From sequence record MT478991.1: 64,000 nucleotides of DNA; one strand, written 5' to 3'. The number at the start of each line of letters is the position of its first letter. The first letter of the stretch is position 1. Position numbers and translations under genes: made by a program. This document shows, one piece after another, positions 22,264 through 47,926 of this stretch. Source of the stretch: Escherichia phage vB_EcoM_011D4. The notes below the pieces were generated by a model, which was not told where the DNA came from, ran no database searches, and worked only from the letters and a program-made list of their open reading frames with translations.

Positions 22264-23655
22264 TCAAATATAGTCTACTCGATACCGCGCACGGGTAACA
22301 CCCACATATAATAACTGCATTGCCAATTCAAAGTCAACATTGTCTGTACACATACAAGGAGTATACAGGAACACGCGGTCTACGCTGATCCCTTGTGACT
22401 TATGAATGGTGCAAGCTGGTAATGCTTTTACATTCAAGAACATACGTTTCATCGTCCAGAAGGAATCCCAATCTGGTTTAAATTTTGGATTCTCTTTCTT
22501 CATTTCGCGATATTGTCCGGCGACCGTATTCAGATAGATAGAGAAAATGTTCTTCTGACGTTGTTCTGTCAGAATGTTGATTTCTACTAAATCCGGTTTA
22601 TCTGTAGTGATTCCGACTGCATCTAAACCGACTTTCTGATTTAGGATTTCTTTGTCTTCGTCATCATCGACGCTTTCCACTTTCAGAGTATAGCCTAAAA
22701 CTGGTTGCGGATCTACCCCCGTGCAACGTAATGTAAATTCACGCGGTATAACCTCTTTAACCCGGATCATCTCACCATTGTTAAAAATAACATTGGGAAT
22801 TTTCTTCCCGCGTTCATCTCGCAGATATTCGATCAACGGTTCCTGAGTAACCAGAATTTCATCTACAATCACTGGTTCATCGGTGTTATAAACGCGCTTG
22901 CGCACAATTTCATTGAGTTTTTCGACGCTCTTGTTAGTGTAAGCCAGAATACGGTTTTCTAGAAGGTCTTCCGGCGTTTTAACGGTTTCGAAATAATGCT
23001 TCATAAACTCCGGCAGAGTTGAGCTATGGAATACACCCTCGTTACCGCACTGCTTTTCGAATACCCATTTACCGTTACGGACAGCGGTCGCCACATCAAT
23101 GATCGGTGCATTAGATCGTTTAATTTCTGTCAACTCCACGTTTTGAAAATTTTCATCCGTGAAGAAAGGAGAAATTGACGTTGCACCGCTCGGATCAACT
23201 GGTCGTAACTGGTGCGGATCGCCAACTGCAATAACAACAATTCGACCGTTGATACTCTTCATGAGAATATCAAATAGTTTCTTATCGACCATACTCGCTT
23301 CATCAACAATGATGATCTGAACATCATCTAGCTTAGGAGTATCTTTTTGCTCAAATACTTGAGTATCTTCATAGTTGGTCGGGTTTAGTCGCAGTAGTGC
23401 ATGTAAAGTAAATGCTTGACGACCTACCGCTTTACTCAAAACTTTTTTAGCCTGGTGGGTAGGCGTTGCCAAAACCACACCAGTTACACCACGGCGGACC
23501 ATTTCCTGAACAATGAATTTCATCATTGCGGTTTTACCAGTACCCGCCGCACCACGGACAGTTGTATGCTTCTTTTGTTCAATGCGTTTCATTAGAACAT
23601 CAAAAGCATGTTTTTGCCCGTCTGTTAACATATCGAAAGTTAATACTCTGCTCAT
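22264..23655 (-). CDS. dda: Dda DNA helicase (SF1)
   Basis: N-terminus FDMLTDGQKHAFDVLMKRI...GAAGTGKT; blocks VLATPTHQAKK, SNAPIIDVATAVRNGKW, AYTNKSV, LLYVGVTRARY match Dda as recalled. Confidence 0.9.
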   Translation of the reverse strand: MSRVLTFDMLTDGQKHAFDVLMKRIEQKKHTTVRGAAGTGKTAMMKFIVQEMVRRGVTGVVLATPTHQAKKVLSKAVGRQAFTLHALLRLNPTNYEDTQVFEQKDTPKLDDVQIIIVDEASMVDKKLFDILMKSINGRIVVIAVGDPHQLRPVDPSGATSISPFFTDENFQNVELTEIKRSNAPIIDVATAVRNGKWVFEKQCGNEGVFHSSTLPEFMKHYFETVKTPEDLLENRILAYTNKSVEKLNEIVRKRVYNTDEPVIVDEILVTQEPLIEYLRDERGKKIPNVIFNNGEMIRVKEVIPREFTLRCTGVDPQPVLGYTLKVESVDDDEDKEILNQKVGLDAVGITTDKPDLVEINILTEQRQKNIFSIYLNTVAGQYREMKKENPKFKPDWDSFWTMKRMFLNVKALPACTIHKSQGISVDRVFLYTPCMCTDNVDFELAMQLLYVGVTRARYRVDYI

Positions 23656-42291: not shown

Positions 42292-42324
42292 TAAAAAGGG
42301 AAACCCCTTTCGGAGTCTCCCTTA
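42292..42324 (-). terminator. Rho-independent terminator upstream of gp47
   Basis: - strand 12-bp stem AAGGGAGACTCC-GAAA-GGGGTTTCCCTT (GAAA tetraloop, two G-U pairs) followed by TTTTAT. Confidence 0.6.
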
Positions 42325-42620: not shown

Positions 42621-42856
42621 GTTATTTTTCCTTCTGGGATATAATCAATTATTAAAGAAAATTCATCTTCTGATACATTATAGCTATGTGAGATTGTACC
42701 CGTAAAGACCTCAAGATCCGGTGATTTGATATTGCACGGATCGATAATCACCGGAACGCCGCAATCTCTCAAAAATAATTTGGCGAAATACGGCACGAGG
42801 TCAGTTTCAAACTCTGCTTCTTCCAGCAAACGGGAAATGTTAATTTTCAATCTCAT
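42617..42856 (-). CDS. Hypothetical protein (79 aa)
   Basis: ORF between gp55 and gp47; overlaps the gp55 3' end. Confidence 0.4.
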
Positions 42857-43373
42857 AAAATTGGTCCAGGCTAGGCAATTCCTCGGTCAATACATCTTCA
42901 ACCTTTGGCGCTTTCGGTTTATTGACCGATTCCTCGTAGTTGTTGATTTTATCGTAAATGTCCTGTATGAATGCCTCATCAGCAATCTGGCACATATCAG
43001 CGTCGCGTTCGTCATATACATGATGCACAAAATATTTGTATTTTGCGGCTGTCGCTGTTCTCTCTTTTTTAATGCGCTGTACAAAAGCATTAAAGCACGC
43101 TTGCGTGATGTAAGCATGAGGATTTTTATACTTTGTCTCGTCAAAATTAATCAAACCCTTGACCGCCGCTTCGATTCCGTCGTCGATCATTTCTTCGCGC
43201 CATGTTTGACTATAGCCAGAAAAGTTAAAACGTCGTGATAGATTTTTTGAGATTTGCATAATTGCCAGGCCAATTTGATCGCTCATTGGCACTTGCCGAC
43301 CTTCGGCTGCAATTCGTTGTTTCCAACGGCAAATTTCTTCGTAAAGCTCTTTATTGTTTACATAATCAGACAC
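42840..43373 (-). CDS. 55: Late-transcription sigma factor gp55
   Basis: Blocks [65 protein letters not shown] match gp55 as recalled; start codon appears to be GTG. Confidence 0.85.
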
Positions 43374-43413
43374 TTCGCACCCTCGCTATTATTTAGGAAA
43401 TAACCCTTTCGGG

Positions 43414-44883
43414 CTATTCCCCATTACCATTATACTTTCTTTGCTTAGTTATCCACACTCTAACCATCTCTACAGATTCGCCGTCAGACGGATCAAGAGT
43501 TTTTCCCTTTTTCTTCATGCGGTACTTAAATCCGTTAAATCTTGCATTCTCTTGTTCGTTAAAGTCGAACATCTTTTTAAATGATTTTCGCCCTTTACGC
43601 TCACCACATTCTAGCGGAATCATTCGGTCTGTTATTACATTGGCATTAGGTAGAAACGTTTTTAGATAATCTACCAACGCCCAATCAGGAACATATAGAT
43701 TAACATTCTCCTTGCTCTCGTTGTCTCTCAGGTTACAACGCAAACATAATTGAAATGCTGGTTCCAGATAATCAGACACATGACGCGCTTTCAAAAACTC
43801 ATTTGTTGGAAGATCGCAACTGTGCGCCAATCCTTTTAAAATGTCAATCTCCCATCGTTGAGGGTTAAAGCTGAACATCACAGCAACATTTTTATGATGA
43901 ATGTAAGAGTTAAGGCCATAAGATCCGTATGGTATCCGCTCACCAATACCATTTGTGCACGCTTCACGGTCCCTATTCACGGTATAAATGAAGTCATCAC
44001 CACATTCATTTTTAACCATATCAACTAGACGTTCAAAGGTATTGTTTGTTTCTGACTGGTGACGCGACCAGCGTTCGGAGTCCGTCATAAGGATGATATT
44101 AACTCTATCTGTATTTTTATACTCTTTGAAATATAGTCTGGATTCTAGAGCACTCGGAACAAAATCGCAATTTGCATAGTATCGTAGATACTTCCCGCTA
44201 TATGTATCAAAGAGATTTGCACATGCTATCGTAACCTTTTTAAAGTCTCCCCATGTACCGTGTTTGTTATCGTTCAAGAAAACAATTTTCGACCCATTCT
44301 TCCGGTGTCCTTCGTTATGTTTTACCATAACGTTGATTTTCTTCTCTAATAACGCCTCATAAAGCCCTCTAAGAGAAGAATCGATCATATCAGTACCATC
44401 CTTTGCACTTTCTATCTTTTCTTTGATAGCGGCCTTCTCAGAGTCTTTTAGAACTAGGTTCTGTAGACATTCCGATTCGTCGGCGATTGGTTCGCAATGC
44501 TTCGTGATAAGTTCAAGATTAGACTTAAACGGATACTCATTAAATTCAACCAGTTGAGGAACTTCATCAATGTAAAGAGCATAATCACCAAACATTTTTG
44601 AACGTTCCATATTAGATAACGCAGTATGTGTAATGAATATCACATCAGCACCGTCTTTAACTGATTGCATTATCGACGCTTGCACTGTCTTAAGGCTTCT
44701 TAGTCTTGTGCTATCGATCAAGACAGCACGACCGCCCATTCTTTTAAACTTATTGTAAGATTGTTCACTTAAAACACGAGATGGCGAAGCAATAACCGCT
44801 TTTTCTTTTGTCTCTAGGACGTGGGAAAGTATAGCATCAGTTTTCCCCGCCGCTGGCAATGCGATTAATGTTTCAATCTTCAT
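43414..44883 (-). CDS. P-loop NTPase of unknown function (489 aa)
   Basis: Walker A at residues 8-15 (ALPAAGKT) and Walker B-like ALYIDEVP near residue 105; large uncharacterised C-terminal region; ATG overlaps the upstream stop. Confidence 0.5.
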   Translation of the reverse strand: MKIETLIALPAAGKTDAILSHVLETKEKAVIASPSRVLSEQSYNKFKRMGGRAVLIDSTRLRSLKTVQASIMQSVKDGADVIFITHTALSNMERSKMFGDYALYIDEVPQLVEFNEYPFKSNLELITKHCEPIADESECLQNLVLKDSEKAAIKEKIESAKDGTDMIDSSLRGLYEALLEKKINVMVKHNEGHRKNGSKIVFLNDNKHGTWGDFKKVTIACANLFDTYSGKYLRYYANCDFVPSALESRLYFKEYKNTDRVNIILMTDSERWSRHQSETNNTFERLVDMVKNECGDDFIYTVNRDREACTNGIGERIPYGSYGLNSYIHHKNVAVMFSFNPQRWEIDILKGLAHSCDLPTNEFLKARHVSDYLEPAFQLCLRCNLRDNESKENVNLYVPDWALVDYLKTFLPNANVITDRMIPLECGERKGRKSFKKMFDFNEQENARFNGFKYRMKKKGKTLDPSDGESVEMVRVWITKQRKYNGNGE

Positions 44884-45170
44884 TAGAAACCCTTACGTCG
44901 TGCTTTCTGGCATTTCTTGATCATTTTATCAGAAATTTCGCGCTTAGGTGCAATCTCTTTCACACCGAAAGCACTAATGCCAAATTCAGAGAGAATATAT
45001 TCAACTAACAATTCACGCACACGCGCTTTACCGATATTCACGCCGTTATTTTTCAGATATGTCTGGCCTTCGACTTGCATCAGATCTAAATCTGCGTCGG
45101 TAATATTGATTTCTTCCATGCGCCCAAATCGAGAATAAACCATGTGTGCGATTGCATTGTGTACTAACAT
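44883..45170 (-). CDS. Hypothetical protein (about 95 aa)
   Basis: Track start is TTG; first ATG at 45170; stop overlaps the start of the P-loop gene. Confidence 0.4.
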   Translation of the reverse strand: MLVHNAIAHMVYSRFGRMEEINITDADLDLMQVEGQTYLKNNGVNIGKARVRELLVEYILSEFGISAFGVKEIAPKREISDKMIKKCQKARRKGF

Positions 45171-45191: not shown

Positions 45192-45350
45192 TTACTTAAT
45201 GATACTTACTTTACCAGATCCGTGACAATGAGCGCAACACCCATCACCACACAATCCTGTTCCGTTACAGTGTTTACACTTCTTCAACGGTAAAGCCATT
45301 ATAACAAATAAAGCAATAATGAACACCGAAACTAAATTCTCAATAATCAT
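45192..45350 (-). CDS. Possible membrane-anchored Cys-rich mini-protein (52 aa) with DnaJ-type zinc-finger repeats
   Basis: MIIENLVSVFIIALFVIMALPLKKCKHCNGTGLCGDGCCAHCHGSGKVSIIK: N-terminal TM helix plus two CxxCxGxG units; ATG overlaps the glutaredoxin-like gene's 3' end; below ORF-track threshold. Confidence 0.35.
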   Translation of the reverse strand: MIIENLVSVFIIALFVIMALPLKKCKHCNGTGLCGDGCCAHCHGSGKVSIIK

Positions 45351-45609
45351 AAATCGCCCTCAGTTCTTTATAGCCTCCAATGTGCTCGTTGTCAATGAAT
45401 ATCTGGGGGTATACAAATCGGAGGCTCTTTGAGTTCAGCCTCCCCGCCAGTTCTTCAATCATATCACGGTCGGGAATAATGTCAACCCCGACCTGCTTGA
45501 ATACTGGTTTAAGTGTATACGGAATACCCAGATCATCCAGTAGCTTCATTGCACCAATACAACCATAACAATGATAAGCCTCTTTCGGTATGCCGTATAT
45601 CTCGATCAT
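45340..45609 (-). CDS. Glutaredoxin-like protein (NrdH/glutaredoxin family)
   Basis: 89 aa; N-terminal CxxC (HCYGC), cis-Pro motif VYPQIF and GGY typical of glutaredoxin/thioredoxin fold; near nrdG/nrdD. Confidence 0.55.
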   Translation of the reverse strand: MIEIYGIPKEAYHCYGCIGAMKLLDDLGIPYTLKPVFKQVGVDIIPDRDMIEELAGRLNSKSLRFVYPQIFIDNEHIGGYKELRAIYDY

Positions 45610-46082
45610 TTCTCAGCCTTTAATCTTTCTAGTTCTTCTTCCAGTTCCTTGATCCGTTGGTCACGTTCAAAGTCACGCTGCAACTTAGTGGCGAATACTC
45701 GTTTAAACTGATTGTAATCATCGATTTTAAACACTTCTTCTTCGCCATAGCGACGCACAGAAACTTCGTAGTTATTGAAGAATTGTTGCATCATTGCTTC
45801 GGATGATAGTTCTGCTGATACTACTTTAAAATATTGATCTTCTGTAGGCGAAAACCAATTACAAGCATAAAGATAAACCTTTTCATTGTCTGGACACTGG
45901 TAAGCCTTACCATCGATTTCAATCACAGAAACATATTCAGGCATAGTAGATGAATCAATAGCTAAGACTTTAAACTGACGGTCCCCGATAAACTCGGAGA
46001 TCACACGATTCGCATCACTGGTTGCAAAGGCTTTACGCGCTTGTTCGCTTTTCCACTGATAGGTCATACCAACAACAAACAT
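45606..46082 (-). CDS. Hypothetical protein; member of multi-copy module family (1 module)
   Basis: N-terminal module VGMTYQWKSEQARKAF...FKVL...VSVIEIDGKAY shared with the next three genes and with 52293..54381. Confidence 0.5.
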   Translation of the reverse strand: MFVVGMTYQWKSEQARKAFATSDANRVISEFIGDRQFKVLAIDSSTMPEYVSVIEIDGKAYQCPDNEKVYLYACNWFSPTEDQYFKVVSAELSSEAMMQQFFNNYEVSVRRYGEEEVFKIDDYNQFKRVFATKLQRDFERDQRIKELEEELERLKAEK

Positions 46083-46083
46083 A

Positions 46084-46908
46084 TTACCAACCTCGCTCTT
46101 TACCGATCAAAAATTCAACCTCACGACGTTTAATGTCTTCTTGAAGGTCTTTAATCTTCTGGCGATCTTGCATGATTTCATCCATCTTGTCAAGTGCTGC
46201 AATAAAATCATCGAAACGTTCAAAGGTTTTACCTTCATTTGCTTCGCCAAATTTAACCATAGTCAGACCGTAACGACTACTAAACAGACGTTTCAACTGC
46301 CCAACGATCTTAGAATCAGTAGTGACGACTTCCAATTCTTCTACTTCTTGAAAGAATTTTCTATCAGAATCAATAAACCAGCTAGTTCCTTTATGGTCTT
46401 TATCTTCGGTTGCACTCATTAGAGTATGGTCTTTACCATCAATTTCAATTACATCAATTTGCCCACATGGACTAACCTTTTTAACAGTAAAAGGTCTATA
46501 ATTTATTGCTCGTGCAATAACATAATTAAGGTTAGATACGTTTTCAGCATAATGACAGAAGTCGGTCATAGCATTCGCATCTTTCCAAGTATAAGTTTTA
46601 CCAACTTCCCATTTCTGGGGAACTTCTTCAACTTCACGAAAGAATTTTCTGTCAGTAGGACTAAAGAAAAATGATGCCGTCCACAATTCATTTTCTGTAA
46701 CAGAGTCTACCGTATGCTCAACCCCATCGAGTTCTATTACATCAATCCAATCGCCATCTTCGACCTTGTTGATGGTAAAAGGCTTATCACCAATAGATTT
46801 TCTGATATCGTCATTAAGTGGAGAAAGGCAACCACCACCACAATTAACAAAATCTGTTTTAGCTTTTTCATCTTTCCAGGTGTAAGTTTTACCAATTTCC
46901 CATTTCAT
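46084..46908 (-). CDS. Hypothetical protein; module family (2 tandem modules)
   Basis: MKWEIGKTYTWKDEKAKTDF and QKWEVGKTYTWKDANAMTDF start two internal repeats, each followed by ...IDVIE(L/I)DG...DRKFF(R/Q)EVEE. Confidence 0.5.
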   Translation of the reverse strand: MKWEIGKTYTWKDEKAKTDFVNCGGGCLSPLNDDIRKSIGDKPFTINKVEDGDWIDVIELDGVEHTVDSVTENELWTASFFFSPTDRKFFREVEEVPQKWEVGKTYTWKDANAMTDFCHYAENVSNLNYVIARAINYRPFTVKKVSPCGQIDVIEIDGKDHTLMSATEDKDHKGTSWFIDSDRKFFQEVEELEVVTTDSKIVGQLKRLFSSRYGLTMVKFGEANEGKTFERFDDFIAALDKMDEIMQDRQKIKDLQEDIKRREVEFLIGKERGW

Positions 46909-46920
46909 AATATATTCCCC

Positions 46921-47400
46921 TTAACCGATTTTATCAAGTTCGTTTAATGCTTTCTCTGCTTCCTGTATAGCTTGCACCCTTTCCGGCATTTTGTCAAGAA
47001 AATCTTTCAACTCTTCAAAACTGGAGATATGACGCAAGGCGTTAGCACCGATAGCCGCATGTGATTTGCATTCAAAGCGGATTTTATAATTATCCATCGC
47101 CAACTTGAGAAGATCAATTAATTTAGATTCTTCTGGAATAATAATTTCTTCAAATCTGCTACGGTCATGATCCAGAAACCAACAAGATAGACCTACATCG
47201 GTTGAACTAATATAAGTTCCATCATGAAGATAAACAGACCGCACGTATCCTTTTTTCGCATCAACCGACGCAACTTTAAACGGTAATCTCAGATATTTCA
47301 AATAATCAACATCATACCATTTAAAAAATTGGTTTGCATCTTTTACATCTTTCCACGCATAGGTCTTACCAGCTTCCCATTTCATAATATCATCTCTCAT
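46921..47400 (-). CDS. Hypothetical protein; module family (1 module)
   Basis: MKWEAGKTYAWKDVKDANQFF...PFKVASVD...; C-terminal coiled coil. Confidence 0.5.
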   Translation of the reverse strand: MRDDIMKWEAGKTYAWKDVKDANQFFKWYDVDYLKYLRLPFKVASVDAKKGYVRSVYLHDGTYISSTDVGLSCWFLDHDRSRFEEIIIPEESKLIDLLKLAMDNYKIRFECKSHAAIGANALRHISSFEELKDFLDKMPERVQAIQEAEKALNELDKIG

Positions 47401-47926
47401 TTTTGATACGTGATTCTAATTGGATCATACGGTCGCGCGTTTGCTTGTATTCTCGGATAGCACCGATCCGGCTAGGCATACCATCAAGCACGCTCTTAAT
47501 ACCTTCTAGGGTAGTAATTTTGGCAATGCTATTATGTAACCCCATCTTATCGATCAACTGAATGTCGTAGGCTTCCATAAGCAGACCCAGGCGTTCTAAA
47601 GTTAGGTCTTCTTCTTTTTCTTCCGAATCTGGAATCTTAGGTTCAATAGTAACTTCGGTAAAGAAACGACGCTCACCCGACCAAAACCACACACCGGAAC
47701 AGCCAATAGGGGATTCTTTTAACGTCATAGAGTCGAAATTACTACCAATAATAGTAATTTCTCTAACATCACCATCATCGTCAAGGTCTTCTACCCTAAA
47801 CGGGCGACCAGCCAACAAGTCAACAATACATCTGTTAATAGACGACGAAAATTTAGTCAGTTCGGCTTTCGACGCTTCGCATTCAATCTTGTAAGTTTTA
47901 CCAACTTCCCATTCCATAATAATCAC
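47390..47926 (-). CDS. Hypothetical protein; module family (1 module)
   Basis: MEWEVGKTYKIECEASKAEL...RPFRVEDL...VREITIIG...ERRFFTEV. Confidence 0.5.
   Translation of the reverse strand: MIIMEWEVGKTYKIECEASKAELTKFSSSINRCIVDLLAGRPFRVEDLDDDGDVREITIIGSNFDSMTLKESPIGCSGVWFWSGERRFFTEVTIEPKIPDSEEKEEDLTLERLGLLMEAYDIQLIDKMGLHNSIAKITTLEGIKSVLDGMPSRIGAIREYKQTRDRMIQLESRIKNER

Follow-up and report, generated by a model that had tools for sequence, protein, structure and literature searches.

A predicted superfamily 2 helicase with an XPD/DinG-like fold and no iron-sulfur domain encoded upstream of gene 55 in a T4-like phage

The sequence analyzed here is a stretch of 64,000 nucleotides (nt) from Escherichia phage vB_EcoM_011D4 (sequence record MT478991.1), referred to below in its full length as the window. 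We focus on a protein of 489 amino acids (aa) encoded on the minus strand by a single open reading frame (ORF), which is located between a homolog of T4 gene 55.2 and the late sigma factor gene 55 (Table 1). The protein carries the sequence motifs of superfamily 2 (SF2) helicases, its predicted fold is closest to that of the XPD/DinG helicases, and it is very probably an active SF2 helicase or translocase.

The order of genes on the minus strand is nrdH, a 52-aa Cys-rich ORF, the 95-aa gp55.2 homolog, the 489-aa gene, gene 55, a-gt.5, a-gt.4, and gene 47. The surroundings are devoted to DNA metabolism, with nrdH, nrdG and nrdD upstream, the gp55.2 homolog abutting the helicase gene, and gp47 and gp46 encoded downstream. 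In the direction of transcription, the 489-aa gene thus lies directly upstream of gene 55, and the Cys-rich ORF comes ahead of the 95-aa and 489-aa genes; an earlier note on this DNA, made from the sequence alone, had placed the helicase gene after gene 55 and the Cys-rich ORF behind it. Other statements of that note about the locus stand, including the reading frame itself and the TAATG junction, where the start codon ATG of the 489-aa gene and the stop codon TAA of the 95-aa ORF overlap by one shared A (…AAGGGTTTCTAATGAAG…). A Shine-Dalgarno-like AAGGG is present 8 nt 5' of this ATG, and the translated product begins MKIETLIALPAAGKTDAIL in the ORF listing of the window. For the 95-aa ORF, the most plausible start codon is the ATG at 45170, which follows GAGGAA and yields a product of the same length, 95 aa, as in the JSE annotation. 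On the downstream side, the 40-nt gap ahead of gene 55 contains a short stem-loop that overlaps the helicase stop codon and could serve as an attenuator or an RNA-stability element. The gp55 of the window is 100% identical to gp55 of Phi1.

Table 1. Features of the window discussed in the text; residue numbers refer to the 489-aa protein.
Feature	Position	Strand	Remarks
489-aa SF2 helicase-like gene	43414..44883	minus	single ORF including stop codon; same gene as JSE EpJSE_00045
Motif I / Walker A, ALPAAGKT, residues 8-15	44839..44862	minus	K14 invariant, G13 in 98% of 142 homologs
Motif Ia-like, SPSRVLSEQS, residues 33-42	44758..44787	minus	S33, L38, S42 invariant in T4-like subfamily
Motif II / Walker B, ALYIDEVP, residues 102-109	44557..44580	minus	D106, E107 invariant
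Insertion of ~105 residues, residues 110-215, motif II to motif III-like TIACAN	44239..44556	minus	least conserved part of motor
Motif V-like, PYGSYGLNSY, residues 318-327	43903..43932	minus	G323, N325 invariant
Motif VI, YLEPAFQLCLRCNLR, residues 372-386	43726..43770	minus	Q378, R382, R386 invariant; presumed arginine fingers
Basic helical C-terminal tail, residues 421-489	43417..43623	minus	T4-like subfamily only; E445, W477 invariant there
95-aa gene, T4 gp55.2 homolog (DUF7570)	44883..45170	minus	42% identity to T4 gp55.2, E=9e-20; DUF7570 E=1.4e-28
Sigma-70-like promoter match, TTGTCA-18-TATCAT	45199..45228	minus	just upstream of 55.2 start; consensus match
Gene 55, late sigma factor	42840..43373	minus	directly downstream of helicase gene; PHROG 234 E=4.8e-63; GTG start
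Short stem-loop, AGCCC-GAAA-GGGTT	43402..43415	minus	read from sequence; 5 pairs, GAAA loop
Intrinsic-terminator-like strong hairpin	42296-42323	minus	between a-gt.4 and gene 47; 12 pairs, 6 G-C, then T-run
52-aa Cys-rich ORF	45192-45350	minus	overlaps nrdH end
nrdH	45340-45609	minus	
Tandem array of four paralogous genes	45606-47926	minus	between nrdH and nrdG
Dda helicase homolog	22267-23643	minus	46% identity to T4 Dda, E=3e-128

Sequence conservation was assessed in an alignment of 42 homologs from the T4-like subfamily and in a family-wide alignment of 142 homologs, in which identity falls to ~17-25%. The only residues invariant in the latter are K14, D106, E107, G323, N325, Q378, R382, and R386. 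This set corresponds to SF2 motifs I, II, V, and VI with the arginine fingers, and is therefore the signature of an active motor composed of two RecA-like domains. The features that define SF2 membership are found in the form of motif I PAAGKT (residues 10-15), motif II DEVP (106-109), and a second RecA domain with motifs V and VI. The T4-like subfamily further shares the blocks SRxLSxQS (35-42), ITHxAL (84-89), TIAxAN (218-223), PYxxHGLN (318-325), FSFNP (337-341), YLEPAFQLCxRxxxR (372-386), and VPD (398-400), and the SPSRVLSEQS stretch aligns with the PTRELA-type motif Ia of DEAD, reverse gyrase, and PriA proteins. The earlier note had correctly recognized a P-loop nucleoside triphosphatase (NTPase), with Walker A and B residues that prove to be invariant family-wide; the C-terminal region of about 350 residues, in which it saw no recognizable motif, contains HGLN (322-325) and FQLCxRxxxR (377-386).

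The sole Pfam match is to PF00270 (DEAD/DEAH) and is marginal, with 27.3 bits compared to a gathering threshold of 26 (E=3.4e-6, residues 11-130). Scans of the protein against NCBIfam and PADLOC yielded nothing useful, and sequence searches of the PDB with the single protein or with a profile of the T4-like subfamily yielded nothing relevant. The PDB matches of the family-wide profile are those of a generic first RecA domain, and include DDX52, reverse gyrase, Mss116, PriA, Mfd, UvrB, and NS3.

In comparisons with an AlphaFold2 model of the 489-aa protein (predicted local distance difference test, pLDDT, 87.7), the best matches are Finegoldia DinG (9kqh; score 18.3 over 358 residues), XPD (3crv; 18.3 over 331), type IV-A CasDinG (8s35; 17.7 over 316), Rad3 (5fmf; 17.5 over 332), and a second XPD structure (2vl7; 17.3 over 323), compared with scores of about 14.2-14.4 over ~240-275 residues for Ino80, Chd1, CSB, and HsdR. 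The XPD/DinG matches align 316-374 residues, whereas those confined to the RecA core align about 240-260. A 799-aa relative with 24% identity was modeled independently (pLDDT 85.6), and its model leads to the same ranking, with XPD at 18.3, CasDinG at 18.2, XPD at 17.0, and DinG at 16.9 versus 15.8 for Ino80 and CSB. The 60-100 additional residues aligned in the XPD/DinG matches fit the insertion of ~105 residues that follows motif II and occupies the position of the Arch domain in XPD and DinG, and in the modeled fold this insertion may represent an Arch domain. The basic C-terminal tail possibly binds DNA or a partner protein.

As in XPD, Rad3, and DinG, the model comprises two motor domains, the first of which is interrupted behind motif II, at the Arch position. 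Unlike these helicases, the phage protein has Walker A at its very N-terminus and no Fe-S (iron-sulfur) or pseudo-Fe-S domain between motifs Ia and II, where ~60 residues (43-101) include no cysteine and only canonical RecA elements. Cysteine conservation is restricted to C130 and C380, which belong to different domains and are conserved within the T4-like subfamily only. CasDinG, sDinG, and some ExoDinG proteins also lack a functional Fe-S cluster (PMC11981726), and Hna, CasDinG, and sDinG are known as Fe-S-less DinG-like proteins (PMC11981726, PMC13381803). According to a review, sDinG has incomplete ATP and DNA sites (PMC11981726), whereas the ATPase motifs of the phage helicase are invariant. 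Hna (PDB 9yhn) ends in a PD-(D/E)XK nuclease, while the phage protein terminates at residue 489 with its short basic tail and has no nuclease; moreover, sequence homology to Hna was not detectable, as 9yhn is absent from the PDB matches listed for two family profiles (A1, A2) and for a long relative (P0077). In the long relatives described below, the position of the Hna nuclease is taken by a primase-like domain. Such fusions also distinguish the phage family from the DinG-like proteins; the word "primase" has 0 occurrences in the text of the review (PMC11981726). A fair statement is that the protein is an SF2 motor with a predicted architecture closest to the Fe-S-less DinG-like proteins, which nevertheless constitutes a sequence family of its own.

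Homologs with 31-99.8% identity were found in 243 phage records, and 237 of them cover at least 80% of the query. By host genus these are Aeromonas (77), Escherichia (53), Cronobacter (19), Enterobacter (18), Citrobacter (12), Klebsiella (9), Serratia (8), Proteus (7), and others. About 13% of the phage records with gp55 carry the helicase gene (243/1880), but the share varies from all 77 in Aeromonas to 53 of 611 in Escherichia and 9 of 278 in Klebsiella; neither Synechococcus, with 281 records that contain gp55, nor Acinetobacter, with 70, is among the ten genera in the helicase listing. T4 does not contain the gene, and its slot between 55.2 and 55 is occupied by the 87-aa gene 55.1 (DUF5495). 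We considered gene 55.1 as a remnant of the helicase and rejected this possibility, because the two show no similarity (E=1.6) and 55.1 belongs to DUF5495. The helicase is an accessory gene of T4-like phages, in agreement with the view of the earlier note that it is not a core T4 replication or packaging ATPase; no ordinary core T4 gene matched it along its full length.

The protein matches PHROG 2467 ("unknown function") over its full length, with E=5.2e-175 and residues 1-489 aligned with positions 8-502 of the 502 in the profile. When 1.84 billion representative proteins were searched exhaustively with a family profile, 1,329 relatives were recovered with E<=1e-3, and 765 with E<=1e-10. The family falls into two size classes of ~480-550 aa and ~750-890 aa. 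Foldseek searches of BFVD revealed relatives in Agrobacterium phage Atu_ph07, Ralstonia phage phiRSL1, Fusobacterium phage Fnu1, Achromobacter phage Motura, and Pseudoalteromonas phage H101, all uncharacterized. The window belongs to a Krischvirus (RB49/Phi1/JSE group). Its 489-aa protein is 99.8% identical to EpJSE_00045 of JSE, a "hypothetical protein", and the same gene is labeled "putative helicase" as W115_27; the JSE and W115 orthologs are 99-100% identical. The statement of the earlier note that no function is assigned thus agrees with the public records. A table published in 2006 lists a marginal DEAD/DEAH Pfam match for RB49ORF044c (E=0.069; PMC1524935), which by its position appears to be the RB49 copy of the gene. 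This entry is all that surfaced in a literature search aimed at the gene, and no functional study was found.

Among the bacterial relatives, those of ~800 aa possess a C-terminal extension of ~330 residues with the conserved motifs LDFExGD, NTYxHT, RFRV, and SGLDxSK. Of 15 such extensions, 12 show similarity to PHROG 9765 (best E=4.9e-10) and 5 to PHROG 2135, both "DNA primase" families, and 10 to the N-terminal part of PHROG 256. Neither Pfam nor the PDB gave a significant match for the extensions, with faint signals for PriCT_1 (0.063) and RepB_primase_C (0.11); from the sequence pattern of DxE, sxH, and an hD-like element one would expect the core of an archaeo-eukaryotic primase (AEP). These relatives sit in alphaproteobacterial chromosomes, including Bradyrhizobium, Bosea, Methylobacterium, Sphingomonas, and others (loci L037-L060; e.g. 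L037:10001-12427). In 9 of 24 such loci an ORF of the tyrosine integrase family lies within 8 kb, and all six representatives scanned match Phage_integrase; helix-turn-helix regulators and DUF6641 proteins also recur nearby. In Bradyrhizobium sp. 172 the gene for an ATP-dependent DNA ligase is a convergent neighbor of the ~800-aa relative. Given the primase-like domain and the nearby integrases, the ~800-aa relatives look like replication proteins of integrative elements, and may represent an undescribed helicase-primase of this kind.

Primase-helicase replication proteins of mobile elements are exemplified by P4 alpha, pRN1 ORF904, and T7 gp4. The ~800-aa relatives resemble them in combining a helicase motor with a primase-like domain. 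They differ in the reversed order, with the helicase at the N-terminus and the primase at the C-terminus, and in a motor that is of the monomeric SF2 type rather than a ring-forming motor of superfamily 3 or 4. The 489-aa phage protein differs from all three in that it has no primase-like domain; its match to PHROG 31024, which represents the long relatives, is weak (E=1.7e-9).

Of 29 related viral loci, 28 have a gp55.2-like gene upstream of the helicase and in the same orientation: it abuts the helicase in 21, lies 0.8-2.2 kb upstream with an inserted gene between the two in 7, and was undetected in 1. In RB16-type phages the pair is kept, but gene 55 has moved elsewhere. T4 gp55.2, an early protein with an early mRNA, inhibits E. 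coli topoisomerase I and raises phage fitness (PMC4396842). The inserted gene of the Aeromonas 25/44RR group encodes 168 aa (L003:2998-3504 in 44RR2.8t.2, with the same location in 25 and Aes508). It contains a GRSGGADGADD motif, overlaps the helicase start by 4 nt, and has no Pfam match; some records call it a "DprA-like DNA recombination-mediator protein".

With regard to early timing, for which the evidence is weak, a sigma-70-like promoter match precedes the gp55.2 homolog and a further one is found at 45485-45458 on the minus strand. The late promoter sequence TATAAATA occurs once in the window, at 1712, with no occurrence near the helicase. RB49 and Phi1 use strong sigma-70-like early promoters (PMC2839356). 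We infer that the helicase gene and the gp55.2 homolog are probably co-transcribed at an early stage. Their transcription unit, which also contains gene 55, probably ends at the hairpin found between a-gt.4 and gene 47.

These results lead us to propose, with modest confidence, that the protein is an early accessory DNA helicase of XPD/DinG-like shape, which is made with gp55.2 and serves replication or recombination. It would consist of motor domain 1 with the insertion at the Arch position, motor domain 2, and the short basic tail, and would be translated from an early transcript shared with the gp55.2 homolog. By analogy with DinG, Dda, and UvsW, it would act on DNA in phage replication or recombination, presumably with 5'-3' polarity, and candidate tasks are the unwinding of forks, D-loops, or R-loops and the clearing of proteins from the template. 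The primase fusion in the bacterial relatives supports a role on DNA, since the motor there is part of a helicase-primase, typically the replication protein of a mobile element. Dda (superfamily 1B) and UvsW (SF2) are non-replicative helicases of T4 replication and recombination and provide a functional model for an extra helicase, although Dda is not homologous to the 489-aa protein. The helicase would work in addition to gp41 and Dda: Dda is encoded in the same window and is found throughout the lineages that carry the helicase, which therefore adds to Dda, and we rejected the possibility that it replaces Dda.

Several observations weigh against this proposal. Pfam families DEAD_2 and Helicase_C_2 gave no match at E up to 1, and an hhalign comparison of the family profile with E. 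coli DinG reached a probability of only 6.9%, over motifs I-Ia, compared with 74.7% over motifs I-II for the DEAD-box control RhlE; polarity and substrate can therefore not be safely transferred from DinG. UvsW is among the core genes of T4-like phages (PMC2993671), and in the presence of gp41, Dda, and UvsW a replication role would be redundant or conditional. All records found for the family are annotated as hypothetical proteins or putative helicases. The sigma-70-like matches are not enriched over shuffled sequences (14 found compared to 11.5 +/- 3.9 expected). Finally, T4 holds 55.2, 55.1, and 55 in the same order without a helicase, so that the synteny is possibly an inherited backbone, and the non-T4-like Pseudoalteromonas phage PH357 contains a helicase relative without a gp55.2-like neighbor. 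These two cases weaken the notion of an obligate partnership with gp55.2; co-expression with the gp55.2 homolog is likely, whereas functional cooperation is speculative.

An alternative that we regard as rather unlikely is that the protein is a factor of counter-defence or host takeover, which does not serve phage replication. It would imitate, titrate, or take apart a helicase-based immune system of the host or the trigger of that system, or remove host proteins from DNA. The early accessory region with small ORFs of no assigned function around the gene is consistent with this possibility, as are the accessory pattern of ~13% of gp55-bearing records, the modulation of host proteins by the T4 neighbors gp55.1 and gp55.2 (PMC4396842), and the presence of the defence proteins Hna and CasDinG in the Fe-S-less DinG-like structural neighborhood. 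However, no PADLOC match has a meaningful E-value, and the strict conservation of the catalytic residues argues for an active motor over a decoy. The syntenic position is stable across genera at 31-44% identity, which suggests vertical inheritance, and the relatives are fused to a primase and not to effectors or inhibitor domains.

It is quite unlikely, in our estimation, that the protein is an RNA helicase or a transcription-linked translocase, tied to gene 55 and acting on phage mRNA, R-loops, or RNA polymerase. Such a role would agree with the adjacent gene 55, with DEAD/DEAH as the only Pfam family matched, with the presence of the DEAD-box proteins DDX52 and Mss116, and of Mfd, among the best PDB profile matches, and with the RhlE comparison above. 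Yet these matches are limited to motifs I-II of the first RecA domain, and we rejected assignment to the DEAD-box RNA helicases: there is no Q motif, because motif I begins at residue 8 and leaves no room for it, motif II reads DEVP in place of DEAD, and the position of motif III is occupied by TIACAN with no SAT. Structural matches over the whole protein favor the DNA helicases XPD and DinG, the relatives carry a DNA primase fusion, and in RB16-type phages the gene lies away from gene 55.

A translocase or remodeler of double-stranded DNA, similar to Snf2 or HsdR, would track the duplex without unwinding it and could, for example, displace nucleoid proteins from host or phage DNA. We consider this improbable, as matches of this type align the RecA core only and score below XPD/DinG, and neither Snf2-specific insertions nor a Pfam match to SNF2 or ResIII were found for the phage protein. 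Last, the earlier note's proposal of a single-domain kinase-like or Zot-like P-loop NTPase joined to an unrelated C-terminal region was based on real motifs, namely Walker A at the extreme N-terminus (LIALPAAGKT, residues 6-15) and an hhhhDE motif ~90 residues further (ALYIDEVP; 92 residues from K14 to D106), but the second RecA-like domain with its invariant motif V and VI residues, the Pfam DEAD match above its cutoff, the structural matches to helicases with XPD/DinG as the best, and the lack of any kinase or Zot Pfam match at E up to 1 render it extremely improbable.

Returning to the accessory DNA helicase, a broader scenario can be drawn that connects it with its relatives and with gp55.2, although we find it unlikely to hold as a whole. 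In this scenario, SF2 motors of XPD-like shape that lack an Fe-S cluster would constitute an undescribed clade, and the phage protein would be its stand-alone version. In integrative elements of Alphaproteobacteria the same motor would be fused to a C-terminal AEP-type primase, the reverse of the usual order, giving a new monomeric type of helicase-primase replication protein. Outside Tevenvirinae the motor would work with the translationally coupled topoisomerase I inhibitor gp55.2. With topoisomerase I inhibited, negative supercoils and R-loops would be favored, and by processing such R-loops or D-loops the helicase would initiate or regulate replication. The two proteins would then form a module of a helicase and a topology modulator, replaced in T-even phages by gene 55.1.

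Some other features of the region and the genus are worth recording. The 52-aa Cys-rich ORF encodes an N-terminal hydrophobic helix and two CxxCxGxG repeats, which form a DnaJ-type zinc-finger pattern; it matches NCBIfam DnaJ models at E ~0.005 and PHROG 3931, and is labeled "putative membrane protein" in W115. The tandem array between nrdH and nrdG comprises genes of 158, 274, 159, and 178 aa with five copies of a ~90-aa module (M(K/E)WE.GKTY.WK … WF … R.FF.EV), each followed by a coiled-coil-like tail; the modules share 23-30% identity, and no Pfam family was found for them. The Krischvirus phages SAP and TB34 are 99.96% identical, but SAP contains glucosylated methyl-dC and TB34 plain cytosine, with no known hydroxymethylase or glucosyltransferase genes present (PMC13390438); nothing links this modification to the helicase, and the connection is limited to the same genus.

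Previous annotations of the gene and its family (RB49ORF044c, EpJSE_00045, W115_27, and PHROG 2467) provide at most a domain hint, and do not describe the fold class, the extent of the family, the primase-fused relatives, or a function. This work adds the complete assignment of motifs, the predicted XPD-like fold that lacks an Fe-S domain, the family size, and the relatives fused to a primase, and "SF2 (XPD/DinG-like fold) helicase, Fe-S-less" can replace "hypothetical protein" in the annotation. T4-like phages are a reference system for replication and recombination, and a full-size, apparently active helicase has never been studied there, even though it is conserved in whole lineages, including Krischvirus, Pseudotevenvirus/Karamvirus, and all 77 Aeromonas T4-like records. 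A study of this helicase would show what an extra XPD-shaped motor adds beside gp41 and Dda, and whether there is any cooperation with gp55.2. With at least 1,329 representatives, including the helicase-primase fusions, the family is a sizeable uncharacterized branch of SF2, which bears on the replication of mobile elements and on the evolution of the DinG-like fold without an Fe-S cluster.

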